From positions 2,108,001 through 2,172,000 of the forward strand of contig OX597833.1 of assembly GCA_951406725.2 (NCBI GenBank): a stretch of 64,000 bases of DNA. Reading direction: 5' to 3'. The translations under genes were made by a program, and so were the position numbers. Below are positions 7,315 through 51,950 of this stretch, in pieces. The notes beneath the pieces are model-generated. The model saw only the letters and a program-made list of their open reading frames with translations. It had not been told where the DNA came from and made no database searches. The stretch comes from Octopus vulgaris (Eukaryota). Position 1 is the stretch's first letter; each line of letters begins with the position of its first letter.

Positions 7315-7542
7315 TGTCTCGTTTCCACCCCCCACCCCACTATCCTCCATTGGTGTTTTCGTCTTTCGGCAGTTGAAGCATTTTCGCTATAAATAGAACC
7401 ACATGTAGCAGCGGAACGGACACACAGACAGACACATACTCGCACAGATACACAGATGCAAAGACACGTGGAGGCTCGGTAACGTACACTCACCGAAAGA
7501 TAAACACGCCTACACACATATATACGCTCACATGCATGCACG

Positions 7543-7630
<88 letters not shown>

Positions 7631-7708
7631 TATATATATGTATATATATATGTATATATATGTGAATATGACTGTATATTTATATTTGTGTATATTTATG
7701 CATGCATG

Positions 7709-7803
<95 letters not shown>

Positions 7804-7817
7804 CGTATGTATGTATG

Positions 7818-7873
<56 letters not shown>

Positions 7874-7943
7874 TGTACATATATACACCTACATACAAGT
7901 GTATATTTGTATTTGTGTGTGTGTGTGATATAGACAGATAGAT

Positions 7944-7992
<49 letters not shown>

Positions 7993-8012
7993 TAAATAGA
8001 TAGATAGATACA

Positions 8013-8046
<34 letters not shown>

Positions 8047-8346
8047 CATAAAATATATGTAAGATTCGGGTGAATATGGTACATGAGTTGGTGCACCTAG
8101 TTAAGTTTGAATAATACACACACAGTAATTTGCAAATATTAACCTCGGTATAGAATTGCCGACAGAATTAAATTTCTGTTGCGTTTGCAGAGAATTAGAT
8201 TCAGTTCGAATATAGAATCCCCTGTTCAGCTTTTCAGACAGGTGCACTTAATTAAATGCGCAGTCCGTAATAAAGTTCAGAATATGGAAAGGACACGTTG
8301 TGTGGTTGGTGTATAACATATAAATGAATGAAAAGTGAAGGATATA

Positions 8347-8511
8347 GGCGCAGGAGTGGCTGTGTGGTAAGTAGCTTGCTTACCAACCACATAGTTTCGG
8401 GTTCAGTCCCACTGCGTGGCACCTTGGACAAGTGTCTTTTGCTATAGCCTCCGGCCGGCCGAAGCCTTTTGAGTGGATTTGGTAGACGGCAACTGAAAGA
8501 AGCCCGTCGTA

Positions 8512-8559
<48 letters not shown>

Positions 8560-8829
8560 CATACATACACATAAAAACACACACAAACATATATGTGTTT
8601 GCATGTGGTTGTATGTTTCTGTGTCTGTGTTTGTCCCGCCACCATCGCTTGACAACCGATGCTGGTGTGTTTACGTCTCCGTAAACTAGCGGTTCGGCAA
8701 CAGAGACTGATAGAACAAGTGCTAGGCTTACAAAAATTGAGTCCTGGGGTCGATTTGTCCGACTAAGGGTGGTGCTCCAGCATGGCCGCAGTCAAATGAC
8801 CGAAACAAATAAAAGAGTAAAAGAATAAA
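8347..8829 (+). mobile_element. SINE family A, full length
   Basis: GGCGCAGGAGTGGCTGTGTGG head through AAAAGAGTAAAAGAAT tail. Confidence 0.9.
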
Positions 8830-8978
8830 AAAAAATATTTTAAAAAATTACCAACCAAGAAGATGGAATGAACAGGATTTAATTATGAAATGCAACAATC
8901 GTCTCTGCGCCGTAGTCTCAGCTTCTAAATACTGAGCCTTGCATATCATACTATCGCTATTGTAGTATTATGTGGAAA

Positions 8979-9309
8979 GTGGAGGCGCAATGGCCCAGTG
9001 GTTTGTGAGTGTTTATTGAGCGAAAACACCTAAAGCTCCACGAGGCTCCGGCAGGGGATGGTGGTGATCCCTGCTGTACTCTTTCACCACAAATTTCTCT
9101 CACTCTTACTTCCTGTTTCTGTTGTACCTGTATTTCAAAGGGCTGGCCTTGTCACTCTCTGTGTCACGCTGAATATCCCCGAGAACTACGTTAAGGGTAC
9201 ACGTGTCTGTGGAGTGCTCAGCCACTTACACGTTAATTTCACGAGCAGGCTGTTCCGTTGATTCGGATCAACCGGAACCCTCGTCGTCGTAACCGACGGA
9301 GTGCTTCCC
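8979..9309 (+). mobile_element. SINE family C (tRNA-Arg-like) with 54-bp deletion in the head; 12-bp TSD
   Basis: TSD ATTATGTGGAAA at 8967-8978 and 9310-9321; body nearly identical to 25525-25909. Confidence 0.9.
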
Positions 9310-9429
9310 ATTATGTGGAAAAACTGAGCGACGAAACAATTGTTGTGTTCTATAGTTAAAGATTAAAATCAATATCTATTCAGAAATGTACAAAAAATGA
9401 TTGTATTTTTTGTTGACCTTTATCGACAT

Positions 9430-9970
9430 TAATGGTAAATATCACCTCCCACATTTTTGTCACCAAAAGTTCCGACTGTGTCACGTGCTACAAAGGAAGG
9501 AATGCGGTAAAGACCGTAGAGCTGACGTATTCTTGGGAAGCGAACATCGAAGGCGATTTCCTCCGGAAAGACAGAAAGTACGAAGAACTGGTTGAAATCT
9601 GTGAATACAATGGATGGGAAGTAATATGCTTTTCTGTAGAGATCTGTCAGAGGAATTTGTTGGAACAAGGGTTCAGTTGATACCCAGGTATCTTGGACTA
9701 GTTGCGAAGAAGAAAAGAGAAGCTGTCAGGAAATCGTCGAAAGCTGACAAGAAAGCAATATGGCACGTGTGGTACAGTAAGAACGAGCAATGAGGATGGT
9801 AGGGACATCTGGCCCAGAGTTGCAGCTTCTAGTTCAACAAAGCTCGAACTGTTGTATAGAAGTTTTGTCACTTATATCGGTGGGTGACTCTGGTCAGCTG
9901 TAGAGTCGTGGTGGAAGCGGTCGAAACGCCTACAGACCTACTTCACTGCCTGATGTGACTTCGACTCCTA
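9430..9970 (+). mobile_element. Degenerate 3' end of a HERO-like RLE non-LTR retrotransposon
   Basis: VELTYSWEANIEGDFLRKDRKYEELVEICEYNGWEVICFSVEI matches the ELTVPWE..E....K..KY..LV..C...GW....PVEVG restriction-like endonuclease pattern. Confidence 0.75.
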
Positions 9971-10666
9971 CATTCTCCTTTGAACAGAAATGTTTACCCT
10001 CAAGGTTTATTCAGTAATGACTAAAAGAAATCGATAAATAATGTATTATAAAGTTTGTTTAACAATGAGAAAAGCATTGTCAATGTTAGTTTAACATTTG
10101 ATAAAAAAAAAGAAGTTTGTTCATATCGTTTTTTAATAATGAAGAACATGTGTACATTATGTTCGATCAGTATTGATCAGTATTTCTCGATAATGATATT
10201 TCAGCAATGGACAAAAAAAAAGCCAATATGTGTTCCGTAATAAAGGAAACATTTAATAATGTTAGCATTTCGCCAGTCGCTACGTTCTGAGTTCAAATTC
10301 CGCCGGGGTCGACATTGCTTTTCAAACTTTCGAGGTCGATAAATTAAATACCAGTTACGCACTGGGGTTGAGGTAATCGACTGGCCGCCACTCCCAAAAT
10401 TTCAGACCTTGTGCCTATAGTAGAAAATATTTAATAATGTTAGCTCAATGATGATTGAAATATTAATAGTGTTAGTTCAATAATGACCAAGACAGCGATA
10501 ATGGTCTTTTAGTAACGAGTCCTAAATATCTATTATTTTACCAAAAAAAAAACAAAGAAAATATTGATTCTGGGTATTTTTATTCAGCAATGAACGAGTC
10601 ATAATAATAATTCTTTCGGTGATCAAACAAGGAAAATATCTAAATAACTGGTAATGTGCATAATAT

Positions 10667-11088
10667 TACTCTTACTCTTTTACTTGTTTCAGTCATGTGA
10701 CTGTGACCATGCTGGAGCACCGCCTTTTAGTTGAGCAAATTGACCCCAGGACTTATTCTTTGTAGGCACAGTACTTATTCTATCGATCTCTTGTTCCGAA
10801 CCGCTAAGTGACGGGGACGTAAACACACCAGCATCGGTTGTCAAGCGTTGTTGTGGGGGACAAACACAGACACGCAAACACACCCATATATATATGTATA
10901 TATATATATATATATATACACATATATACGACAGGCTTCTTTCAGTTTCCGTCTACCAAATCCACTCACAAGGCTTTGGTCGACCCGAGGCTATAGTAGA
11001 AGACACTTGCCCAAGGTGACACGCAGTGGGACTGAACCCGGAACCATGTGGTTGGTAAGCAAGTTACTTACCACATAGCCACTCCTGG
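10667..11088 (-). mobile_element. SINE family A, full length
   Basis: Reverse complement of family A head and tail. Confidence 0.9.
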
Positions 11089-12366
11089 GGCAATATTGTG
11101 CCTGTGTTTGTCCACCACCAACACTTGACAACTGGTGTTGGTTTGTTTATGTCCCTGTGACCTTGCTGTTTGGAAAAAAATGCCGGATAGAATTGCTTAC
11201 TGTTTAAAGTTGTTCGTCAATGAGGACGACGACGTTGTCCCCCTAGGAGTCTTGTCCTAGATTTTGTGAGTTTGATAGATGTGAAAATAGTCCCATCCTG
11301 GAAATGGCATGTTCTTGCACAAAGATGCTGTTTCCTAAGATGGGTCGGCCACGTTATCAGGATGTCTGACAATCGTCTCCCGAAAATGGTCCCCTTGGGA
11401 GGGCTATCAACCCTTGTTTGCACGCACTGTTTGCAGTGGGACTGAACCCGGAACCATGTGGTTGGTAAGCAAGCTACTTACCACACAGCCACTCCTGCGC
11501 CCGTAACAGAATAAGTAACAGAATTAGAAAGAAAAAAAAACCTCCCAGGTCACCATTCTTGATAAATGACTTCAATAGCAACCACAAGGTGTGCATCGAT
11601 CCGAAGTATACTTTCAAGCGAACAACAATAATAATTTTGTTTTCATCTTTTTTTATTTCTCGCCTTTTCTTTTTTCATTACATTTTATACTCCGCGGTTG
11701 ACATCAAACATTCGACACCGCCTATTTTTCACAGACTTTCGGTTTGTTTACAGTCAACAAACACTCGAATACCAACGAGAAAATACGAAATAGAAACACA
11801 GACAACACCCAATCATACGCATACATATCTATCAAATTTAATAAAACAATGTTTTATAAAATGTTATTCCGAAGTAATATACATTTTTCTTTCGAAAATC
11901 ACTTTTCTATTCATTATTTTTATATAAGCACCAACAAATTTCACAAAAGTTATATCATAATTATCGTACGTACACCATATTTCTAGATATTATTCGTCAG
12001 AGGGTGGGTGGAAATCAAGTTCAATAATATACAAATTGTGATAATGTTTTCCTTTTTTTTTCTTTTCATAATAATGTCTATAATATACTCAATATTTATT
12101 TAATAATGAGAGAATTCTCGGTAACTCTTTTTAATTTAATAACGTACAAAATATCGATAAAATTTGTTAAGTAATTATTAAATTATTTCATATTTTTATG
12201 CCGTGAGTAGAAGAGCAAACGAACAAGTTTTGATAGTTTGACAGATTTCTTTTTTCAATAACGAAACTCTGTTCTTCATATGTGTTTTAATAGCGAAGAG
12301 TGCAGCCATGGCTGTGTGGTTAAGGTACTTGTTTCGGAAACGGTGTGAGCAAAACGTTTCATACTA

Positions 12367-12576
12367 CATTAATCCGTCACCCTATCGCAGTTCACTTAAC
12401 GCGCACTCGGTACATCGCGGATTTTTCTAGTTGATATATGTATGTTTATATCGCGGACTCCTCAGTATATCGCGGGTTTCTGCTGCCGATAGGTATTTAT
12501 ATATTTTTTTAAAGATTTTAATTATTTCTGTGGGAGGTTTTGGAATCTAACACCCGCGATAGTCGAGGTGTTATTG
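12367..12576. mobile_element. Tigger/pogo-like MITE (about 210 bp, TA-flanked)
   Basis: Degenerate TIRs CATTAATCCGTCACCCTATCGC / GCGATAGTCGAGGTGTTATTG, flanked by TA; relatives at 14609-14818 and 50482-50671. Confidence 0.65.
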
Positions 12577-12797
12577 TATAGTCAAGGACCAACCAATACT
12601 TTGTAAGTGAAATTGGTAGACAGAAACCGAAGCCGATCGATCGATCACCAGCTAGATATATCGATGGGTAGATAGATCGATAGATAGATGGATGGACGGA
12701 CGGACAGACAGACAGACAGACAGACGAACGAATGGACGGACTGACGGACGGACAGACAGACAGACGGACGGATGGATGGACGGGCGGACGGACGGGC

Positions 12798-12828
<31 letters not shown>

Positions 12829-12845
12829 TAGATAGATAGATAGAC

Positions 12846-12882
<37 letters not shown>

Positions 12883-12998
12883 AGCAGACAAGTAAGTAGG
12901 CAGCTAGGTAGGTAGGTAGGTGGATGCATGAATGGATAGATGGACGGATTTTTGTTGAAAATCATATGTGCGTGTGCTTGTTTGTGCATGTAAGCATG

Positions 12999-13062
<64 letters not shown>

Positions 13063-13235
13063 TACAAAATTAGAAAATGGAGAAACATACTTAAATCAAT
13101 CAAACATCAACCATCAGATGATACCCAATCAATACTTTATTACATCATTACATAACAGCAAAGACATTATACAAAATATATTGTAAATATAATTAGACAA
13201 GGAAATAGAATGAATTTTCAACCCCTATCTCATTT

Positions 13236-13285
<50 letters not shown>

Positions 13286-13409
13286 CATGTGTGTGTGTGT
13301 GTGTGTATGTGTGTGTGTATGTGTGTCTACAGGTTGCTACGTGTGAAATCTCAATGCTTATATACGTATGTTTTCATTATATATAAGACTTTATCGTTCA
13401 AGTGCGCAC

Positions 13410-13700
13410 GCGTATGCATATGGCATCTTCTTGCTCTTTCACTTCCTGTAGAATCAGATCTCTCCTCATCATCACCCTGGCCTCTGACCACCATTCCATT
13501 TGTGCTACACCCAGTCCCTGCCTATGAGCCTTACTGTGTCCCATTGTTTCTCCGAAGGCAAGGTTTTTCTTTACTGCATCCACCGCCTCCTGGACTTTCT
13601 ACTTCCTGCCTATCTTCAGTTTCAGCCGGTTCGACCTCACAGGGACGTCGATCTTGTTAGGTTGGTATCTGTCTGAAGCCGAAGCGTTTATGCTGCTGTT
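13410..13700 (-). mobile_element. HERO-like non-LTR retrotransposon internal fragment
   Basis: AVDAVKKNLAFGETMGHSKAHRQGLGVAQMEWWSEARVMMRRDLILQEVKEQED resembles the HERO post-RT segment (..VG....GR.GLG.....WSKA...ERR.LV..EVR..EEE). Confidence 0.65.
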
Positions 13701-13712
13701 TCTACAGAAGTA

Positions 13713-13883
13713 GGCGCAGGAGTGGCTGTGTGGTAAGTAGCTTGTTTACCAACCACATGGTTCCGGGTTCAGTCCCACAGCGTGGCACCTTGGGCAAGTG
13801 TCTTCTACTATAACCTCGGGCCGACCAATGCCTTGTGAGTGGATTTGGTAGACGGAAACTGAAAGAAGCCCATCATATATATG

Positions 13884-13924
<41 letters not shown>

Positions 13925-14139
13925 CTGTGTTTGTCCCCCTAGCATTGCTTGACAACCGATGCAGGTGTGTTTATGTCCCCGTTACTTAGCAGTTCGGCAA
14001 AAGAGACCGATAGAATAAGTACTGGGCTTACAAAAAGAATAAGTCCCGGGGTCGAGTTGCTCGATTAAAAGTCGGTGCTCCAGCATGGCCGCAGTCAAAT
14101 GACTGAAACAAGTAAAAGAGTAAAAGAGATTAAAGAGTA
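13713..14139 (+). mobile_element. SINE family A, full length
   Basis: Head and tail as in other copies. Confidence 0.9.
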
Positions 14140-14608
14140 AGTGTACGTGTGTGTGTGTGTGTGTGCGTGTTTGTGCGTGTGTGTGTTGTACATCCCCACG
14201 CACATTATTAAGACACTCTTAACACCAGATATACACCTTAAGCCACTCAAATCCGTAGACGTCCACTAATAGCTAAGTAGGTGTTTCCGCAATAAGCGAG
14301 AGGAAATACCAGTAAGGGGCCATATTTTATACGCAAAGTTTACTGAACAGGACGACACACGACTCCCCGATTTCAACGGAAATGCGTTTGTGGAGACAAA
14401 ACCTAATTTTGTCGTTCTGTATTTATCTTACTTTCTTTAGTCATTGGATTCCGGCCAAGCTGGATCACCACTTTGAAGTTTTACAGATTTCTTTTTTCAA
14501 TAACGAAACTCTGTTCTTCATATGTGTTTTAACAGCGAAGAGTGCAGCCATGGCTGTGTGGTTAAGCGACTTGTTTCGGAAACGGTGTGAGCAAAACGTT
14601 TCATACTA

Positions 14609-14818
14609 CATTAATCCGTCACCGTATCGCGGTTCACTTAACGCGCACTCGGTACATCGCGGATTTTTCTAGCTAATATATGTATGTTTATATCGCGGAC
14701 TCCTCAGTGTATCGCGGACTTGTGTTGTCGATAGGTATTTATATATATATTTTTAGATTTTAATTATTTCTGTGGGAGGTTTTGGAATCTAACACCCGCG
14801 ATAGTCGAGGTGTTATTG
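14609..14818. mobile_element. Tigger-like MITE, inside a local duplication of 12241-12597
   Basis: Near-identical to 12367-12576 including both flanks. Confidence 0.65.
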
Positions 14819-15230
14819 TATAGTCAAGGACCAACCAATGAACAAATTAACCCCATTATCCAATATTTAATATTTCAAAGTGTGGTACTTGTTCTATCGG
14901 AATCTTTGGCGGAAATCTAAGCTATGGTGACGTAAGCAATCCAATAGCGGTTGCCATGTGGTGCTGGACAACTACAAAGACACAAATACACACACACACA
15001 CGCAACATATATGTACACATAAGCGCGCGCGCATTTATGGTGTACGTGTATATTTCAAACACACACACCTGTCTGTGTATGTGTGTGTGTGTTTGTACAC
15101 AGGTGAGCACATAAGTGCAAGACAAGGTGGAAAAAATAGTACTCGAATACCAAAGGTAGAGTAATATAATTTTTATGAAATTTTGCAGCTTTAATAAAAA
15201 GTATATATATATATACATATATACATACAT

Positions 15231-15272
<42 letters not shown>

Positions 15273-15542
15273 ATAAGAGTAAATAATTTCTATAAAGGTT
15301 TTTAAAAAACCACAATTATTTACTGGTAGAATTCGGTATGTAAATATAGCCGATTACCGGCAGGAACTTCTGTAAAGTTCAGTATATATATTGTATATAA
15401 GAAAAAGGGACAAGCAACAGGTTGCTTGACCGCATACCGAAAAAATAGAAATAGCAGTCAAGAATGCTTATTTCTATCAAAGTGGGACTCCGGGCACGAC
15501 AAACCCTGTAATTCACATGTAATAGCATATGTTTTGCATATG

Positions 15543-15586
<44 letters not shown>

Positions 15587-15828
15587 CATACACACACACA
15601 GAACATGTGTGTATGTATATATGTAAATATGTTTGTAAGTGTATATGAGTATAGATAATATGTATGTGAATATTTATGTATACGTATATATATATATTAA
15701 TGCATACATATACTGTACTTACAACGTATGTATATATATATATGCACATATATGTACATATACATACAACGTCTGTATATATATATATATATATATATAT
15801 GCACATACATGTACATATACATACAACG

Positions 15829-15865
<37 letters not shown>

Positions 15866-15905
15866 CATACATACATACATACATACATACAGAGAGAGTG
15901 ATAAG

Positions 15906-15985
<80 letters not shown>

Positions 15986-16332
15986 AAAACAGGCAGGCAG
16001 GCTGGCAGACGGACAGACAGATAGATTGACTGATCCCCTGCTCGAAAGATAGTGAGCAAAGCAGAGTCTAACATGTGAAATAACAACATCATGGAATGTC
16101 CAGATTGTAATTTTGAAAGAAATAACAAAAAGACGTTTTTTTCCTCATCACAAGTTGCTGTTGTTCTTGTTGCTGTCGATCTTAGTTTCAACGAACGTCG
16201 AAAGTGTAAATATACTCCGGATAGTAATTAGCAGATCTTAATTAATTAGAGGACTGTCTTGTAATAAAGACTGACACTGGTTATTGGAAAATTGTTGAAT
16301 CTAACGCACGAACAGGAAAGAAAAGTAGTAAA

Positions 16333-17059
16333 AGGCGCAGGAGTGGCTGTGTGGTAAGTAGCTTGCCTACAAACCACATGGTTCCGAGTTCAGTCCCACT
16401 GTGTGGCATCTTGGGCAAGTGTCTTCTGCTATAGCCTCGGGCCGACCAATGCCTTGTGAGTGGATTTGGTTGACGGAAACTGAAAGAAGCCTGTCGTATA
16501 TATGTATATAGGCGCAGAAGTGGCTGTGTGGTAAGTAGCTTGCCTACCAACCACGTGGTTCCGGGTTCAGTCCCACTGCGTGGCATTTGGGCAAGTGTCT
16601 TCTGCTATAGCCTCGGGCAGACCAATGCCTTGTGAGTGGATTTGGTAGACGGAAACTGAAAGAAGCCCGTCGTATATATGTATATAGGTGCAAGAGTGGC
16701 TGTGTGGTAAGTAGCTTGCCTACCAACCACATGGTTCCGGGTTCAGTCCCACTGCGTGGCAACTCGGGTGAGTGTCTTCTGCTATAGCCTCGGGCAGACC
16801 AAAGCCTTGTGAGTGGATTTGGTAGGCGGAAACTGAAAGAAGCCTGTCGTATATATGTATACGTATGCATTGCTTGACAACCAATGCTGGTGTGTTTACG
16901 TCCCCGTCACCTAGCGGTTCGGCAAAAGAGACCGATAGAATAAGTACTGGGCTTACAAAAAGAATAAGTCCCGGGGTCGAGTCGCACGACTAAAGGCGGT
17001 GCCCCAGCATGGCCGCAGTCAAATGACTGAAACAAGTAAAAGAGTAAAAGAGTAAAGAG
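16333..17059 (+). mobile_element. SINE family A with triplicated 5' half
   Basis: Heads start at 16333, 16511 and 16687 (about 177-bp period); only the third continues into the tail. Confidence 0.9.
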
Positions 17060-17564
17060 AGAGAGAGTGGGGGACCAAGAAGCGGATGTTTTATGTGGTC
17101 AGCGGACAATCTAGATGCAGCAGCGAAAGGTGTGGCCGTATCGTATGAAGTTTGCTTCCCGACCACATGGATCTGGGTTCAGTCCCGCTGTGTGGCATCT
17201 TGAGCAAGTGTCCTCTGCTGTAACAGTAGTTTCTAAACTTTTTTGGGGCTGCCGCCACCTTGACCCCAGGCCACATTCCTTGCGCCCCCACCTGAACAAA
17301 CCATCACAAATACAGACCTCTTTCTGAAGCAAATTCAAAGCAACTGTGTTTCACAAATAGAACTTCACCTTATGAACCCATTATTTTCTTGTTTATACAT
17401 CAATTGTGTCACCATTATCGCTGCACTTTTACATGAATCCCTCCATCATTATCGTCTTTCTTTCTTCAATGCACCGTAGGAATTTTCAACCGCTCTCCAT
17501 TTTCAGAACCTTGTGAGTGGATTCGGCTGACAGAAACTGAAAGAGGCTGTGACATGTGTGTGTG

Positions 17565-17627
<63 letters not shown>

Positions 17628-18140
17628 CGGAATGGTCATTTTGCCAGTTTAGCCAATAAAAACACACGCACTATGTATTTGGTGTTATTTTGCTTCAGTG
17701 TTATTTATTTTTTAACATTAATCTTAATCTTATTTCGGCCAGAGTTCTTTCGTCACTGGCAAAATGACCATTCCGAAATATAACAATATCTGTTTCAACA
17801 CACGACTTCACATAAAAATCTTGCACAACAAATATATAAACGTATATATATATATATACATACAAGTATGTTCAGGACTTAGTGCTTGCTTTTTCCATTA
17901 GTATGAGTATTACATTTATGTTTTACGTATTTATCGCTGAGGAGGGGAAAATTCTTATGAATGAACTCTGAAATTGGACCCAATATGGTAATAACGGAAT
18001 TTTTTAGAAATTTCTTTCGGCTTGTTTCGAGACGCATAAATTATAATGGTTATTGACAATTTTGTCTATTTTCGGCATATTTGGCATTAGAATTTTTCTT
18101 TTGCCCTTATTTTATAAGTAATATATATATACATATATGT

Positions 18141-18244
<104 letters not shown>

Positions 18245-18259
18245 TTGTATGTATATATA

Positions 18260-18690
18260 TGATTGGTCACTAGCTCCAAAAGTTTTTTTTTTGTTCTCTG
18301 TTTATTTCCTCGTGTTCCTTTCTGTACAAGAGCGTAGGCTCGAAACGTAAAAGACTTCCTCACCTTCCCGAGCGTTAAACAAATTCACCCATTTGTTGTT
18401 TATACACCTGTATTCATCTTTTGTTTTTCTATAAATATCAACTAAATATATATGTGTGTGTGTGCATAAATATATATATATATATATATATAACGGGAAA
18501 GTTTACGAAAATAAACAAAAGACGAAGGCAGGTGGAGTACAAACAAACAAATGTATTATTATAGCGTTCAGAAATAGAAATAGAAAATATCTTTTACGTT
18601 TCGAACCTACGCTCTTTGGTAGAAAGATACACAGAAAAAAAAACAAGGAGAGAAAAAAAATGCGTGTAGGAGCTAACGATCTATCATGGC
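18260..18690. mobile_element. Two oppositely oriented copies of the ~190-bp hammerhead-like element family H2
   Basis: GAGCGTAGGCTCGAAACGTAAAAGA at ~18330-18354 (+) and its reverse complement at ~18590-18628 (-); both sit in (TA)n. Confidence 0.75.
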
Positions 18691-18699
18691 GTGTGTGTG

Positions 18700-18760
<61 letters not shown>

Positions 18761-19419
18761 ATATATATATATGTATGTATGTATGTATATATATACATAC
18801 ATATATACATACATACATATATACATACATACATACATACATACATACATACATACATACACACGCAGATTAATGCTTCGATATAGGAGTTAATTTGTTG
18901 ATGTGTTCCCCGGAGACCGCTCGTAAAGAATAATATCGTAAAGCAGAACAATAATTTCCCATAGTAGCAATGTTATAAACCGGAACTCATTCCTAGAAAA
19001 GCAGTTTACCTATAAAATGTGAAATACTCGTAAATAAATGGCAATAAAATAATAGTAGAATGTAAAGAATATTTTATGTAAAGTAAGAAACGAGTATCAA
19101 GATCATTTATAGTAAAAAACTATTATTATCATAATCGTCTTCTGAATCACTTTCACTTGCATTAGTCTCGCACACACCATCACTTGTAGACGCGATCACC
19201 GATTCACAAGCACCCGTAGTCAGACTTGTAGATTTCACTTACAAAAACAAGTCTAGATTTGTATCCTTAGAAGTTCGTTTTCGATCTCTATAAATTACTT
19301 GGTAACATACTGAAGCATTTGTTACGATAATAGAAACTTCTGCACTCCGTTCAAAATTTGGATCTTGTGTTTGAAAGATAAAACTCGTAAACTCGGGATC
19401 TCGTAAAACAGGTCATCGG

Positions 19420-19610
19420 ACGCCACGATAGATCGCTAACCACTACACATTCTTTATTTTCTCTCCTTGTTTCTTTCTGTGTTCCTTTCTGTGTAAGAGC
19501 GTAGGCTCGAAAGTTTAAAGACTTTTTCACTTCCCGAGCGTTAAACTGATACATCTGTTTGTTGTCTACACTATAGGTCTTCGACTTTTTTTTTTGTGAA
19601 TTCTCCCTAT
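19420..19610 (+). mobile_element. Family H2 element, degenerate hammerhead-like motif
   Basis: GATAGATCGCTAACC..CTTTCTGTGTAAGAGCGTAGGCTCGAAAGTTTAAAGA, ending in (TA)n. Confidence 0.7.
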
Positions 19611-19639
19611 ATATATATATATATATATACATAGAATAT

Positions 19640-20053
19640 GGCGCAGGAGTGACTGTGTGGTAAGTAGCTTCCTTACCAACCACATGGTTCCGGGTTCAGT
19701 TCCACTGCATGGCAACTTGGGCGAGTGTCTTCTACCATAGCCTCGGACCGACCAAAGCCTTCTGAGTGGATTTGGTAGATGGAAACTGAAAGAAGCCCGT
19801 CGTATATATGTACATATATATATATGTATATGTGTGTGTATATGTTGTGTATCTGTGTTTGTCCCCCCAACATCGCTTGAAAACCGATGCTGGTGTGTTC
19901 ACGTCCCCGTCACTTAGCGGTTCGGCGAAAGCGACCAATAGATTAAGTACTAGCTTACAAAGAATAAGTCCTGGGTTCGATTTGCTTGACTAAAGGCAGT
20001 GCTCCAGCATGGCCACAGTCAAATGACTGAAACAAGTAAAAAGAATAAAAGAG
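19640..20053 (+). mobile_element. SINE family A, full length
   Basis: Head and tail as in other copies. Confidence 0.9.
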
Positions 20054-20101
20054 TGAATATATATATACATACATATATGGTGTAATTGATAATTATATAT
20101 A

Positions 20102-20148
<47 letters not shown>

Positions 20149-20161
20149 TATATATATATAA

Positions 20162-20229
20162 TCAAAATAAGCAACAAGGATATCCAGAGGTAATGCATTA
20201 CCTCTGGATATCCTTGTTGCTTATTTTGA
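20162..20229. repeat. Perfect 68-bp palindrome at the start of a (TA)n-embedded element
   Basis: TCAAAATAAGCAACAAGGATATCCAGAGGTAATG|CATTACCTCTGGATATCCTTGTTGCTTATTTTGA. Confidence 0.95.
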
Positions 20230-20432
20230 CTATAATCACACCATTTTGAATTATATGGATAATACCATACTAAATTCTGGTGCCTTTAACTTAAGTACCA
20301 TATCCATCTGAATCTAAATTTTACTGGACTTATATATATATATATATATATATACTTACAACATTTAATAAAATGATGTAGTACGAAACGATCGTACCAA
20401 ATTACCGCAGTCATTCTTGTAGCTTATTTTGA

Positions 20433-20467
<35 letters not shown>

Positions 20468-20510
20468 GAGTGGGAGATAGATAGATTATAGAGATAGCTA
20501 GCTAGCTAGC

Positions 20511-20594
<84 letters not shown>

Positions 20595-21010
20595 AAGAAA
20601 AGGGTAGGCGGATGGACAGACGGATAGACAGAGAGGCATTTAGACATTAACAGGAATTGAAGTAAAGGTTTTCATCATTAGACCGCTTCTTCCGAGCTAA
20701 ACTGAGTCTACACTAACAACCAGAAAATCTAAAAAATCTTGAATCAGTTTGGAATTTCAATCTAAAAACGAACCTTTATCGTGAATTCTAGAACATCAAC
20801 GCTGTTAGCCGGGGCAGGAAAATAAACAAACAACAAGGAGATAAATAAAGGTATACTAAAATTCTTGAAAAAATTTCAGAATGTGACCTTACACTGTTGG
20901 TCTTGTCTAAAACTAAATAATGTGGCTTTTGTTTATTATTTCAAAGATCAGCTTCGTCTTCTCTATAAAAGGAATGCGGAGCAGTACATGTATATATATA
21001 TACACACACA

Positions 21011-21078
<68 letters not shown>

Positions 21079-21361
21079 TACGCGCATATATACATACACA
21101 CACATATATATATATATGTGTGTATATGTATAAGTATACATGTACATACACATAGAGGTATAAGTATATAAATATACAGTAAAAATGTATGTATATACAT
21201 ATGTATATATATATTTCTATAAATATACACATATATATGTATACATATAGTTATATGAATGCAAACGAATATATGCATATATACATGCATATAAATATAT
21301 ATATACATGCGTATATATGTATATATATATGTATGTAACTATATATACATGAATACACACT

Positions 21362-21421
<60 letters not shown>

Positions 21422-21922
21422 TGTATATACACACACACATATGTATATATGTGTGTGTGCATGTTTGTATGCAAACAGAAAACGTGTGTTTTGTAATATC
21501 AAACTCTAAAACGAGGCCGTGTAGTGTAAGGAAGGAACGCTTTCCTCAGCGACAACACACTAACCGTTATCCAAATTTCAAAGACTGGCCCTTGTTCTTT
21601 ACTAAAAGAACGCTTCCTTATATTTGTGAAGAAATACCAAGATTACACACACACACACACACACATGCATGCACAAACACATACACACAGACACATTCAC
21701 ACACACAACACACAGACATACACATAAGCTTGTGCAGTTAAAAAGGAACAAAAAAACCTTGTTATCGATGGAATTTGGTCTGGGTTTACCAAATATGTGC
21801 TCACATGAAATCCTGCAAAAACATTTCGGACGTTGTTGTTATTTTTCAGGACCGGATTCTTAGAAGAGAGCAAAGTATGTTTCTATATCTTAAGGCCTTA
21901 AGTGGATATTAGAAAAAAATAC

Positions 21923-21969
<47 letters not shown>

Positions 21970-22068
21970 TAAGCACACACACATATATATATATACATAC
22001 GTACACACACACATACATACATGCATAATTACATATATTATATTAGTCCACATTTCATAGACAGACAT

Positions 22069-22101
<33 letters not shown>

Positions 22102-22259
22102 TAGATAGATAGTTAGATAGATAGAAAAAAAATGAGGATTTTTGAGGTATCATATGGGTTATATTTCATTTTTTAATGTTCTATGTAAGAAGGCCTTCAA
22201 ATACATTTATGTGGGTTTCCCTCACCCCCCGGTGTAATCTTTTTCGAAATACGCCCAAT

Positions 22260-22346
<87 letters not shown>

Positions 22347-22556
22347 CTAGGCAAACATACAGTTGTTTCTATCATACTGACTATTTCTCTTTCTTGTCGC
22401 TCACTAATCTTCTCTCTTTCTTGTGGTGAAGAACTAACCTCCGAAACGTTCAATTATTTTTTCCTCCATGAAGGCATTAGGCTAATGTCATATATTTTAA
22501 ACTGAGTTCATTTTGTGTTGTAATTTTATTGTTCTTTGTTTTTATATTCCTACACA

Positions 22557-22597
<41 letters not shown>

Positions 22598-22809
22598 ACA
22601 TATATACATAGAAGGCAAGAAACGCAGATGAGGGCAGCAACGTCAAACTCCGTCATCCGCCCAATGTCACACATCAGAAGAGTTTTAGTGAATGTATAGT
22701 AAAGTAAATGGCTGTGCTCTAGCATGGCCGCAGGCCTTGGACTGAAACTTAAGAAGTGAAAGAATACACATGCAACTATACGTACATAGAGATATCACGT
22801 CACTTTGTA

Positions 22810-23110
22810 TGTTCCAGGATCGTAAAGAGAGTGGAAGAAAAACATAGAATACACAATCTCCCAAAATTTGAAATAGGAAGAATTTGGATCGTGCGAGCAG
22901 TAAAGGTCGTGTCTATAATAATTGGTTTGTTGGGAACAGTAAGCCAAGATATAGACAATTGGCTGAAGGAGATTGAAATAGAACGTCTGGTAGAACTCCT
23001 AGAGAAAGTTTGTCTCTTAGGGACAGCAAGTATTATCAGGAGGGTCCTAAGTACTTGAAAGACTTCTGAAAACTCTTAGATACCTAAGGTTACAGGTAGT
23101 AATCCGCCAT
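22810..23110 (+). mobile_element. R4/Dong-type LINE 3' fragment
   Basis: KFEIGRIW..VKVVSIIIGLLGTV....WLKEI....LLEKVCLLGTASIIRRVLST* is the typical C-terminus of RLE LINEs. Confidence 0.8.
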
Positions 23111-23189
23111 CCAAATAATCCCTACAGGGGATATACTGAACTCTGAGGCAAACCAAAATACAAATAATAGTAAATTGGTGCACTTGAAA

Positions 23190-23422
23190 GTACCAGCACT
23201 CAGCTACCAAAATGGCTAAAAAAAACTGATGCAAGGGTGAAGGTAGAACACCTATAAAAATTATCGTTGCTTGGAACTGCAAGAATTCTTCGCAGGATTC
23301 TTGGAGCATGACCAGTAAACAAGTGTCACCTTAGTCTGCTGGCTGTGGACAGCTGACACATTCCCTCATACCCAGCAAAATAAGCTGTGAATTTTCATAT
23401 AATAAAAAATAACAACGACTAC

Positions 23423-23496
<74 letters not shown>

Positions 23497-23511
23497 CAAT
23501 AATAATAATAA
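23190..23511 (+). mobile_element. Second R4/Dong-type 3' fragment with (TAA)n tail
   Basis: ..LLGTARILRRILGA*, short UTR, then (TAA)n ~23423-23511. Confidence 0.7.
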
Positions 23512-23513
23512 TT

Positions 23514-23735
23514 TATTTATTTGCTGCCCACAAGGGGCTAAATACAGAGGCGACAAACAAGGACAGGCAAAGGGATAAAGTCGATTACATCGACCCCAGT
23601 GCCTAACTGGTACTTATTTTATCGACCCCCGAAAGGATGAAAGGCAAAGTCGACCTCGGCGGAATTTGAACTCAGAACGTAACGGCAGACGAAATACGGC
23701 TACGCATTTCGCCCGGCGTGCTAACGTTTCTGCCA
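23514..23735 (-). mobile_element. SINE family B monomer in (TAA)n
   Basis: Reverse complement of head plus one unit. Confidence 0.85.
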
Positions 23736-24696: not shown

Positions 24697-26100
24697 TTTA
24701 TTATGTTTGACTTTTGTTTTGTATTTGTACAAGTTGGCTCCAAGTCTCACCCAGAGATCACAAGAGACAAGTTAGAAGTTCATGTTGGTGTTATGCCTAG
24801 GGTGTCATATATTTGGTTTTGTACATAGTATTATTTTAGAAAATGTTTAAGAAAACAAGAAAATTATGAGTTTGTTTTAAAATTTGAGATTATATAGACA
24901 GTATTTTACGTAGGATATGGGCAGATCCCATGAGCACTATCTTTGGAATTTCTGCTATTTTGGTGTTTCCTGATATCTGAGCTAGGTAGCAATCAGCCTC
25001 TTTTGCTATCATTCCCAGGACACCTATAACAACAGGTATTGTTTTAGTCTTCAGGTTCCACATTTTGCCAATTTCTATTTCGAGATCTTTATATTTGCTC
25101 AGTTTTTGGTAAGTCTTGACAGATACGTTTATATCGATTGGGACAGTCATATCAATGAGGAGGCATGACTTTTGTCTGAAGTCTTTCAATATGATGTCTG
25201 GCTATTTGCATCTATTTTTCTGTCAGTTTGAATGGTGAAGTTCCAGAGGAGTGAGATGTGATCATTTTCATGCACTAGCGGTGATTTGTGTTCCGACCAG
25301 TTTTTATCATGGGGCAGGTCCAGGGTTTTATAAATTACCCAGTGAATATATTGTGCTGCTCTATCATGCCTGTTGAGATACTCTGTTGGCGCTAGAAGAC
25401 TGCACTTGGAGACAACATGATCAATGGTTTCATTTTGTTGTCGACATACACGACATGTTGGGCTACTGCCGTTCTTTAATATGTTGGCCTGGTAGTTTCT
25501 TGTTGGTAGGCATTGATCTTGGGTGTGGAGGCGCAATGGCCCAGTGGTTAGAGCAGCGGACTCGCGGTCATAGGATCGCGGTTTCGATTCCCAGACCGGG
25601 CGTTGTGAGTGTTTATTGAGCGAAAACACCTAAAGCTCCACGAGGCTCCGGCAAGGGATTGTGGTGATCCCTGCTGTACTCTTTCACCACAACTTTCTCT
25701 CACTCTTACTTCCTGTTTCTGTTGTACCTGTATTTCAAAGGGCCGGCCTTGTCACTCTCTGTGTCACGCTGAATATCCACGAGAACTACGTTAAGGGTAC
25801 ACGTGTCTGTGGTGTGCTCAGCCACTTACACGCTAATTTCACGAGCAGGCTGTTCCGTTGATTCGGATCAACCGAAACCCTCGTCGTCGTAGCCGACGGA
25901 GTGCTTCCATGATCTTGGGTTGCTATGATAAACCCTTCTGTCTCTGATTTTAAGCCAGAAGACACTAACCATTGATTGGTAAGGGCTTTGTCAACATCGG
26001 CACTTTTAGCTCTTTTGGGGTATTTGCAATTAAGAGGTATTTCTTGCCATTTATGTGTAAGAATATCTAAGGCAGTAGTTTTAGCAGGTACATCAGTTGT
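24696..26100 (-). mobile_element. 5'-truncated R4/Dong-type LINE (zinc knuckle plus restriction-like endonuclease), frameshifted and interrupted by a SINE
   Basis: ETEGFIIATQD|QCLPTRNY..CRVCRQQNETIDHVVSKC (CCHC)..RHD..LLWNFTIQTD..CLLIDMTVP..KLSKYKDLEIEIGKMWNLKTKTIPVVIGVLG; ends in (TAA)n. Confidence 0.9.
25525..25909 (+). mobile_element. SINE family C (tRNA-Arg-like), full length, 11-bp TSD
   Basis: A-box TGGCCCAGTGG, B-box GGTTTCGATTCC; TSD TGATCTTGGGT at 25514-25524 and 25910-25920. Confidence 0.92.
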
Positions 26101-34535: not shown

Positions 34536-34544
34536 ATATAGTTA

Positions 34545-34760
34545 ATTCAAACATGAAAACCCAAAGAGAAAACACTACGCGAGGACGTGGAACAAGTATA
34601 GTGTTATTGGACGCTCAGGAAAGGAAAGAAAGAAGGAGGGTCTAATGTTACGGGCGGAGCTCTTCGTCAGAAACATAGGAAACATAGGAAAAGGAACGTT
34701 CCAAGAAGGGAAGACGGAGGAAAAAATCGCCAACGGTACACGCGCGGTCACATTTTGAAT
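34545..34760 (-). mobile_element. Family H3 hammerhead-bearing short element (degenerate copy)
   Basis: Minus strand GTTTCTGACGAAGAGCTCCGCCCGTAACATTAGAC; inverted partner at 35190-35400. Confidence 0.7.
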
Positions 34761-34920
34761 GACCGATATATGCATATATGTGTACAGGACGTCACCAACA
34801 GTAAACAACATGAAATATGAAAACAAATGAGTTAAATACGGAAATAACAAGAGAAAAAAAGGATAAGTAATACAAAGGATGATCCTTCATCAGTTGTCGG
34901 CTGTTCATCTAGCCTCCATT

Positions 34921-34973
<53 letters not shown>

Positions 34974-35264
34974 TTTGTATACTTTGTTAAAAGCAGCAGA
35001 AATATTACAAAACTGTTACTCAGAGTTTCTACCTTTGGTATTTGTGTACTCGAAGCTCTGAGTAACAGTTTTTGTGATAATATTTCTGCTGCTTTTAATA
35101 AAGCATATTACTCTACCTTTGCTGTTTGAGTACTCTTACTTTTCACCTTGTTTCGCATTTATGTGCTTACCCAGGTATATATATATTCAATATGAGACCA
35201 CGTGTGTATCGTTGGCAATTTTTTTTCCTCCGTCTTCATTTCTTTGGACCTTTCCTTTTCCTAT

Positions 35265-35299
35265 GTTTCTGACGAAGAGCTCCGCTCGAAACGTTAAAT
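35265..35299 (+). ncRNA. Minimal type I hammerhead ribozyme motif (family H3)
   Basis: GUUU CUGACGA A GAGC-UCC-GCUC GAAAC GUU AAAU: canonical core, 4-bp stem II, palindromic AACGUU stem III, weak stem I. Confidence 0.65.
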
Positions 35300-35478
35300 C
35301 CTCCTTTCTTTCCTTTCCCGAGTGTCCAATAACACTATACTTGTTCCATGCCCTCGCGTTGTAGCGTTTTCTTTTTATGTTTTCATGTTTGGATTAACTT
35401 TATATATATATATATATATATGATAGATCGTTAGCTCCTACACGCATGTTTTTTCTCTCCTTGTTATTTTTCTGTGTA

Positions 35479-35516
35479 TCTTTCTGTCGAAGAGCGTAGG
35501 CTCGAAACGTAAAAGA
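35479..35516 (+). ncRNA. Minimal hammerhead-like motif with CUGUCGA core (family H2)
   Basis: UCUUU CUGUCGA A GAGC-GUAG-GCUC GAAAC GUA AAAGA; stem I UCUUU/AAAGA. Confidence 0.55.
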
Positions 35517-35695
35517 CTTTTTCTATTCCTGAGCTCTATACTAATACAATTGTTTGTTTGTACTCCACCTGTCTTCGTCTTTTGTTTATTTTCGTAAACT
35601 TTCCCTTTACATATACATATATATATATACACATATTTTTTTCTCTCCACATTTTTTTTCTCTCCTTGTTTCTCTCCGTGTTTCTTTTCTGTGTA

Positions 35696-35733
35696 TCTTT
35701 CTGTTGAAGAGCGTAGGCTCGAAACGTAAAAGA
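35696..35733 (+). ncRNA. Minimal hammerhead-like motif with CUGUUGA core (family H2, tandem copy)
   Basis: Same fold, 217 bp downstream of the previous motif. Confidence 0.55.
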
Positions 35734-35830
35734 CTTGTTCTATTTATATTCCTGAGCGCCATACTAATACAATTGTTTGTTTGTATTCCACCTGCCTTCG
35801 TCTTTTGTTTATTTTCATAAAGCTTCCCGT

Positions 35831-35864
<34 letters not shown>

Positions 35865-37394: not shown

Positions 37395-37449
<55 letters not shown>

Positions 37450-37453
37450 TTTA

Positions 37454-37590
37454 AAAGCAGCAGAAAATTCAACAAAACCTGTTACTCTGAGTTTCACGTT
37501 GCCGTTCGTCGGACAGTTTAGCAAAAACTGTCCGACGAACGGTAACGTGAAACTCAGAGTAACAGGTTTTGTTGAATTTTCTGCTGCTTT
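37454..37590. repeat. 66-bp-arm inverted repeat carrying a hammerhead-like fold on each strand (family H4)
   Basis: Arms 37454-37519 and 37525-37590, loop AGCAA, one mismatch; the element spans ~37447-37670 in (TA)n. Confidence 0.9.
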
Positions 37591-37667
37591 AAATAAAGCA
37601 TATTACTCTACCACTGGTATTTGAGTACTCTTTTTTCCACCTTGTTTCACATTTATGTGTTTACTCC

Positions 37668-40196
<2,529 letters not shown>

Positions 40197-44221: not shown

Positions 44222-45463
44222 CCATTTTTGTAAAGGGTCAAGGCCTGAAATTTGCTGCTAGTCGATTACATCCACCCGAGTGTTTCACTGGTGCTTCATT
44301 TATCGACCCCGGAAGGTTAAAAAAAGAACGAAGTCGACCTCAGCGACATCTAAACTCAGAACGTAAAGACGGACGGAATAATGCATAGCATTTTGTCCGG
44401 CATGCTAAACATTCTAAACATTCTGCCGATTTGAAATCTTGGCACAAAGCCAGCAATTTCGGGGCAGGGAGTAAGTCGACTACATGGAGCCCAATATTCA
44501 ACTGGTACTTGTCTTTTCGACCCTGAAAGTATGTAAAGCGAAGTCGACCCCGGCGATATTTCAACTCAGAGCGAAAAGCAAGAAGAAATGTCGTTTAGCT
44601 TTCGTCCCTTCTGCTGATGACTCTGTCAGCTTTCCTTCTTACAATAATGATAATAATTCTTTCTAGTATAGGCACAAGAAATGGCAGCTTTGTTTTTAAA
44701 GGAGGACTATTTATTCTGTATCGGTTACGAAAATACGAAAAACAAATTGACCTAGGCGGAATTTGAACACAGAAATGATGCGATACCGGTAAGCATTTTG
44801 CCGAACACGCTAACTATTTTACCAGCTCGCCGCCATAGAAGGTCAATAATAACAACAACATAAATAAATAAATAGATAGAAAGATAAACAAATAAAGCAA
44901 ACCGTGGCTTAAGATATATCGATCAGTCTCACAGGGAATATGAGATACCCGGCCAAACAGATGACAGACAGACAGGTAGGCGGGCAGACAGGCTAAACGC
45001 TGAAATAAATAATTGATATATTTGTATAGAGACGGGCCGAGCAGATGAGAGCAATGAAAGCTTAGCCAGGTATAAGCGATCCGTCTGTAGAATACGATTA
45101 AAAATCAGTTTATTATATACATCTGATAATAAAGTATGTTTGTATCGACTATTTCCTTACACACACACACACGCATATGTATGTATGTATGTGTGTATGT
45201 GTGTATGTATGTATGTATGTATGTATGTATGTATGTATGTGTGTATGTATGTGTGTATTTATATATGCGTGTGTGTGCGTGTGTGTGTGTGTGTGTGTGT
45301 AAACAAATAAATATGTATATGGCTGTATGGTAAGAAGCTCGCTTCCCAATCACATGGTTCCGGGTTCGGTCCCACTGCATAGCACCTTGGGCTAGTTTCC
45401 TAAGCCTTGTGACTAGGTGAATAGATATATGATTGAGGGCAAGAAGACCATTGTGTGTGTGTG

Positions 45464-51676: not shown

Positions 51677-51752
<76 letters not shown>

Positions 51753-51950
51753 GTTGAAATTTATAGAAAAGCTAATGACGAAGACAAGACAGGTGCATGA
51801 ACAACAAGCGTGTTAGTTTGACACTCGGCAAAAATAATAAAGTCTTTTACGTTTCGCGCCTAGGCTCTTCAACGGAAAGAATTAAGAGGAAATAAAGAGA
51901 GAGCCTGAAAAAAAGCTTGTAGATTTCAGAGTTCCAGCATGGTGAATGAC

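Follow-up and report, generated by a model that had tools for sequence, protein, structure and literature searches.

Alignment of public sequencing contigs to H2, a family of short hammerhead-bearing repeats with six copies in the 64-kb stretch of Octopus vulgaris DNA analysed here (the window), revealed that U at core position 6 is the consensus state of the family and not a product of local decay. We propose, at roughly even odds (about 0.5), that H2 is a non-autonomous element of the Penelope type, with uncut RNA as its template, a hammerhead fold that is kept and cleavage that is predicted to be slow or nil. Published cleavage by the hammerheads of Penelope-like elements (PLEs) is weak, protein-assisted and dispensable for insertion in vitro, and a family that has spread with U at a supposedly invariant position beside relatives that keep A amounts to a natural paired test of cutting versus shape. 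Should H2 cut, a large class escapes the core rule and the motif searches based on CUGANGA; should it not, a ribozyme fold has been retained without its chemistry.

A search with the 25-mer that covers stem II, GAAAC and stem I (up to 3 mismatches) yielded six matches, at 18330+, 18590-, 19497+, 35492+, 35709+ and 51843-, and none in 100 shuffles of the window, bearing out the six ~190-bp copies that the sequence-only reading had placed here. Extension by BLAST and profiles gave copies of 180-200 nt, the element ends being set by eye from alignments, at a density of 6 per 64 kb; neither method found a seventh copy in the window. The copies are given below, with the parts of the hammerhead for the upstream copy of the tandem pair.

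35423..35610, plus strand: H2 element, upstream copy of the tandem pair, about 188 nt
35479..35516, plus strand: hammerhead fold of the upstream copy, minimal type I
35479-83 with 35512-16, plus strand: stem I
35484-90, plus strand: core C3-A9, with U6 at 35487 and N7 at 35488
35491, plus strand: bulged A
35492-95 with 35500-03, plus strand: stem II
35504-06, plus strand: G12-A14
35507-10, plus strand: palindromic ACGU
35511, plus strand: N17, with the predicted cut 3' of it
35529..35533, plus strand: CYGAG motif downstream of the hammerhead, exact in 5/6 H2 copies and present in both sister copies
35611..35649, no strand: spacer between the tandem copies, (TA)n-rich and U-rich
35650..35828, plus strand: H2 element, downstream tandem copy with a shorter 5' end; hammerhead 35696-35733, core CUGUUGA
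18260..18445, plus strand: deeper-branch H2 copy with the core CUGUACA, which has lost G8
18492..18687, minus strand: H2 copy near the 35484 copy in sequence, core decayed to CUACCAA
19427..19607, plus strand: deeper-branch H2 copy with the core CUGUGUA, which has lost G8; ACGU lost
51752..51949, minus strand: H2 copy of a deeper branch, core CCGUUGA

The core heptamers read CUGUACA, CUACCAA, CUGUGUA, CUGUCGA, CUGUUGA and CCGUUGA. The normally invariant A6 is thus U in five copies and C in one, with A in none, as had been noticed before, and G8 is absent from three of the six. The five base pairs of stem I and four of stem II described earlier are also seen in the alignment fold, with 4/5 pairs in stem I, 4/4 in stem II and 92.9% of 70 cells paired; the consensus fold of the six H2 copies and two sister copies (see below) contains these two stems only. 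The ACGU of stem III, said to be common to all copies, is present in 5/6, the copy at 19489 reading AGUU. Likewise, the pattern written for the whole family fits three copies and describes the other three only loosely (18590 has no G5, 19489 no ACGU and 51843 a stem II mismatch). A full descriptor of the minimal hammerhead that leaves position 6 free is passed by 2/6 copies (35484 and 35701) and by nothing in 60 shuffles. The window, whose DNA is AT- and microsatellite-rich, gave no Rfam match at gathering score, the canonical sister hammerhead being missed likewise, and a repeat finder run over its whole length reported microsatellites and other repeats only, with no H2.

Contigs of four public sequencing runs, from at most 4 samples of 3 studies, were aligned to 35415-35625 at 80% likeness, and 7,346-23,656 contigs fitted per run. 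Change from U to A at position 6 stayed below 2% of aligned depth in all four runs, a depth that adds up short contigs, gives shared variants more weight than private ones, does not equal copy number and may be affected by trimmed alignment ends. No T>A row falls at 35487, and every T>A site of at least 2% is assigned to another place in 4/4 runs; the list holds 40 of 47 difference rows (all of them for run X6), and the per-run counts by kind leave no T>A row outside it. All four bases occur at N7 (A 22-26%, G 8-13%, U 30-45%, C the remainder) and N17 is A or U (U 16-26%, no G row in any of the four runs). These two free core positions carry the largest non-CpG variation of the motif in every run. 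The further changes within the motif are four CpG steps (1-15%), U>C in the 5' arm of stem I (14-19%) and G>U in its 3' arm (5-9%). In run X6, C3, U4, G5, G8, A9, G12-A14 and A15.1-U16.1 show CpG changes of 2-6% only, no G8 change reaches 2%, and N17 is again A or U. At the family level the core is therefore canonical except for position 6, while individual window copies are decayed. The motif was also found in 1,927, 109 and 195 contigs of three runs guessed to be RNA, none of which is recorded as RNA.

Within the window, U6 occurs in 2/3 copies of the young cluster and 3/3 deep branches, indicating that it predates the split of the subfamilies. The sequence-only reading had held that a canonical CUGANGA consensus would reduce the local copies to simple decay; the consensus found is U6, and as the motif is conserved beyond its flanks, both alternatives of that reading, an active variant and a dead fold, stay, and local decay is out.

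Two further elements carry A6 hammerheads with the stem II of H2. The first, at 35269, was absent from the earlier note and lies on the same strand, 215 nt upstream of the first H2 hammerhead.

35185..35400, plus strand: probable sister element with a canonical CUGACGA hammerhead at 35265-35299, H2 profile E 2.4e-8
34543..34760, minus strand: second sister copy, A6 kept, GAAA half decayed

These CUGACGA elements probably form a sister family of H2, as judged from the shared motif; profiles built from the flanks alone gave no significant relation (best E 0.83). A scan of a sequence collection returned four matches from metagenomes and none from viral contigs or prokaryote genomes. Two of the four, on near-identical loci (L001 and L003), are canonical A6 minimal hammerheads with the stem II of H2, and the other two look like chance matches in GC-rich DNA. 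The presence of this A6 design in an AT-rich metagenome contig supports the view that A6 is the older state. No PLE-like open reading frame was evident in L001 and L003 among frames of at least 70 aa, and the frame near their hammerhead resembles a formin-type exon. Both contigs (L001:1495-1535 and L003) are AT-rich and bear a second hammerhead-like motif on the opposite strand.

The mean pairwise identity of the six copies is 86% over the hammerhead, compared to 54% and 65% for the two flanks, in line with the expectation that the stems would be conserved beyond neutral similarity. Differences from the majority amount to 12/192 in the hammerhead and 204/871 in the flanks (p 3.5e-9, only indicative as the copies are related). 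Similarly, the summed contig depth peaks over the motif with loose ends on either side, as is expected if diverged subfamilies have only the motif block in common. Conservation is not even within the fold. The best-kept part is stem II-GAAACGU (91.7%, versus 61.9% for the CUGUNGA strand with N7 included), and in the six window copies changes are more frequent on the CUGUNGA strand than elsewhere in the fold (6/36 versus 6/156, p 0.011, post hoc). This excess hints at relaxed catalysis, but is unmatched by the run data, where G8 is stable in X6. A hand count of polymorphism in run X6 gave 0/22 in the core versus 14/110 in the flanks, which is not significant (p 0.07). Covariation of the stems is not significant either, as the 8 sequences contain one compensated pair, in stem I of a sister copy, and 67/500 shuffles reach this value.

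The copies of the tandem pair are indeed 217 nt apart, and an opposed pair does lie at 18260-18690, as the sequence-only reading stated. However, its suggestion that the tandem suits dimeric folding and the use it makes of the opposed pair are not supported, and both a tandem dimer and an inverted pair were rejected as units. The tandem copies are 88% alike, one of them is 89% alike to the dispersed 18590 copy, a (TA)n microsatellite parts them, and a shared ACGU stem III is not predicted for the 35470-35745 transcript (pair probability 0.0). The opposed copies are 67% alike and stand tail-to-tail, unlike the inverted 5'-truncated partner copy that, with a tail of 30-40 nt, is an optional feature of PLE insertions; such a tail would hardly show among six copies. 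Both pairs look like separate insertions into shared microsatellites.

A (TA)n run lies within 8 nt of the 3' end in 6/6 copies, compared to 6.5% of other positions within 12 nt of one, and the 5' end is within 3 nt of a TA run in 3/6. The 3' end falls 91-103 nt past N17 and the 5' end, set by eye, about 50-75 nt before C3. All six matches of a profile of the 3' flank have the hammerhead upstream and none begins at the cut, and among the run contigs, the only material for this count, no pile-up of ends at the cut is listed. (TA)n or otherwise AT-rich insertion is common to H2 and the PLEs, which prefer such targets (PMC8557442). A tRNA-derived SINE was rejected since ARAGORN found 0 tRNA genes and an A-box-like match occurs in 0/6 copies, and head-to-tail units of a non-LTR retrozyme were rejected since the window holds a single pair, 88% alike and split by a microsatellite. 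Of 184 candidate frames, 113 were selected for comparison with the Penelope reverse transcriptase core and GIY-YIG, and 0/113 matched, so that the basis for assigning H2 to Penelope is the design of the motif and where the copies are inserted. The 19427 copy is preceded by 540 nt that are single-copy in the window and gave no Pfam match.

Metazoan PLE minimal type I hammerheads have a design close to that of H2, with a U-rich lead-in, a short stem I, an extra base after A9, G10.1-C11.1, palindromic ACGU for stem III, H17 and mostly solo occurrence (PMC4209133). Among sequence features, H2 differs from that consensus in position 6 only, U against A6. A6 stands in 44/44 rows inspected of the 56 in Fig. 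S3 of that paper, whose search required A6. PLE hammerheads are weak alone and assisted by protein (PMC4209133, PMC11167929). In PAc, a Penelope/Poseidon element of Anolis, cleavage requires protein, ribozyme-dead mutants insert normally in vitro, the main template is uncut RNA and priming begins 111-118 nt downstream of where stem II starts (PMC11167929). Similar to PAc, H2 copies cross the hammerhead, end about 100-120 nt behind it and lie in AT-rich targets; unlike H2 with its non-canonical core, PAc is autonomous and has a canonical core with protein-assisted cleavage (PMC11167929). Naiad PLEs have spread without canonical hammerheads (PMC8557442). Animal non-LTR retrozymes, proposed to be PLE derivatives, are likewise small, non-coding, of type I hammerhead and at times solo (PMC7229834; bioRxiv 10.64898/2026.07.22.740005). 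H2 differs from these retrozymes by its dispersed monomers, near-constant ends and non-canonical core, with no near-identical head-to-tail run in the window.

A natural pyrimidine at position 6 is shared with the hammerhead of phage Bcep176, which is a single sequence with C and a measured activity below 0.1 per min (PMC3088659), whereas in H2, a high-copy animal repeat characterised by sequence, U is fixed. A6C is reported at 3.55e-6 versus 0.3 per min in 0.3 mM Mg2+ (PMC7151607); the A6C hammerhead is slow but active, and Mn2+ rescues it (PMC3088659, PMC7151607). Activity is low when the CUGA turn carries a single mutation (PMC9901934). No rate for A6U was found in the literature searched, the quoted rates being those of A6C. 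Penelope minimal hammerheads, their weak activity, U3-A8 swaps and the natural A6C are already in print. A natural U6 core throughout a family was not found in the literature searched; Lunse et al., who reportedly cover about 150,000 PLE hammerhead variants, and Arkhipova et al. 2017 may describe such cores. The O. vulgaris repeat paper (PMC13282606) contains 0 mentions of ribozymes or hammerheads.

Based on these comparisons, H2 is likely a reduced derivative of a pLTR, the end repeat of Penelope-like retrotransposons. In the copying cycle that we propose, the reverse transcriptase-endonuclease of an autonomous Penelope-like element would bind H2 RNA and nick AT-rich DNA. Priming would occur near the H2 3' end, followed by copying back through the hammerhead, and only uncut RNA would give full copies. 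A cut in an element that has a single internal hammerhead would leave its 5' half uncopied. A single founder change of A6 to U would have been neutral, or helpful as more RNA stays uncut, and the rest of the junction would be retained if the protein depends on the RNA being folded in this way. The proposal leaves room for some cleavage of H2 that is slow and assisted by protein.

The proposal is supported by the U6 consensus, the conservation of the motif relative to its flanks, the fit to the PLE consensus, the (TA)n at the 3' ends, the copies that span the cut and the parallels with PAc. The slowing of other hammerheads by changes at position 6 and the more changed CUGUNGA strand of the local copies also speak for it. 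Against it stand the missing Penelope protein among the 113 frames, the published rates, which concern A6C and not A6U, and the non-significant covariation. The run contigs retain G8 and G12, the pairing of C3 with G8 and an N17 other than G, which an active ribozyme predicts too; the core versus flank comparison in X6 stays at p 0.07, and U6 is one site. In addition, the A6 sister copies also span the predicted cut site (2/2), so spanning fails to single out U6. A stronger form, in which H2 is a natural pseudo-ribozyme, with A6U favoured as a brake, the active-site fold long held as a handle for the Penelope protein and a lineage that outgrew its A6 relatives, appears doubtful to us; here cutting would destroy a hitch-hiker with one hammerhead as a template.

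The alternative that U6 is a working natural core variant is possible, if on the unlikely side. Useful cleavage would take place in an intermolecular double hammerhead joined through ACGU, aided by the Penelope protein or Mn2+, and catalysis would conserve the motif. Concentration of variation at N7 and N17 is what a working core would show, the slow but Mn2+-rescued A6C and the protein-assisted PLE hammerheads cited above provide precedents, and two H2 RNAs can be joined on paper into a double hammerhead in which 22/22 pairs are standard. However, for the natural 38-mers this fold is 7.7-12.1 kcal/mol less stable than the predicted minimum, a comparison in which the energy models leave core contacts unscored and the A6 sister does no better. 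The loss of G8 from half of the window copies also weighs against activity, as do the absence of copies that start at the cut and the changes in stem I, where U>C and G>U break pairs unless compensated. A mixed dimer of H2 and the A6 sister has 2/20 non-standard pairs; cutting of H2 in trans by the sister may occur but is not favoured.

Distinctly unlikely in our judgement is that the 40-nt block is kept for a reason other than the fold, such as an internal promoter or recognition of its sequence by the reverse transcriptase or endonuclease, with U6 a founder accident and the hammerhead look inherited. Such a reason would accord with the spread of Naiad PLEs, with the lack of significant covariation and with the best conservation lying in stem II-GAAACGU and not in the CUGUNGA strand. 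Moreover, GCTCGAAAC is one mismatch from a B-box-like pattern in 4/6 copies, the match being exact in one of these. Yet neither an A-box-like match nor a tRNA gene accompanies it, both arms of stems I and II are kept at a distance of 20-30 nt, the free positions coincide with those of the ribozyme, and a sister copy has one compensated stem I pair. That the H2 consensus is canonical CUGANGA and the window copies merely decayed is highly improbable: several of their core sites are decayed and A6 relatives lie nearby, but A6 is nearly absent from all four runs and U6 is common to branches whose flanks are just 45-67% alike.

H2 and the sister family both retain the CYGAG motif ~15-25 nt 3' of the hammerhead, in a flank that otherwise diverges, and its GAGC could take the place of the 5' arm in stem II. 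The use of CYGAG in a split or scrambled-order core was rejected, as by eye it needs G8-A9 twice and leaves no full core.

A third hammerhead-like family has the core CCGAYGA, in which position 4 is C; its stem II is 3 bp long and begins with A-U, its stem III is near-palindromic, and it is found at 37444-37603 (motifs 37512- and 37532+) and at 47276-. At 37444-37603, two of its copies, 92% alike, stand head-to-head as in inverted Penelope insertions. A palindromic piece of this family occupies 34965-35175, its arms starting about the GAAA half and lacking the 5' core, and fragments also occur at 15102-15215. On the minus strand from 34923 down to about 34860, a GAAA half, a hairpin and then CUGAUGA follow in reversed order directly after (TA)n; a similar reversed order is seen at 44572+ and 25082-. 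Altogether, 34540-35830 forms a 1.3-kb pile in which (TA)n surrounds at least 6 nested elements related to hammerheads, belonging to four kinds; the same-strand hammerheads at 35269, 35484 and 35701 are spaced by 215 and 217 nt.

Elsewhere in the window, a DDE_1 transposase remnant lies at 38359-38952 on the minus strand (E 6.2e-18), and 25189-25629, also on the minus strand, holds the remains of a retrotransposon that match zf-RVT weakly (E 2.4e-4, below the Pfam cut-off). The plus strand at 992-2755 carries a low-complexity open frame of 587 codons with T/G/S/Q runs and a more ordinary C-terminal stretch, which is possibly a host exon.
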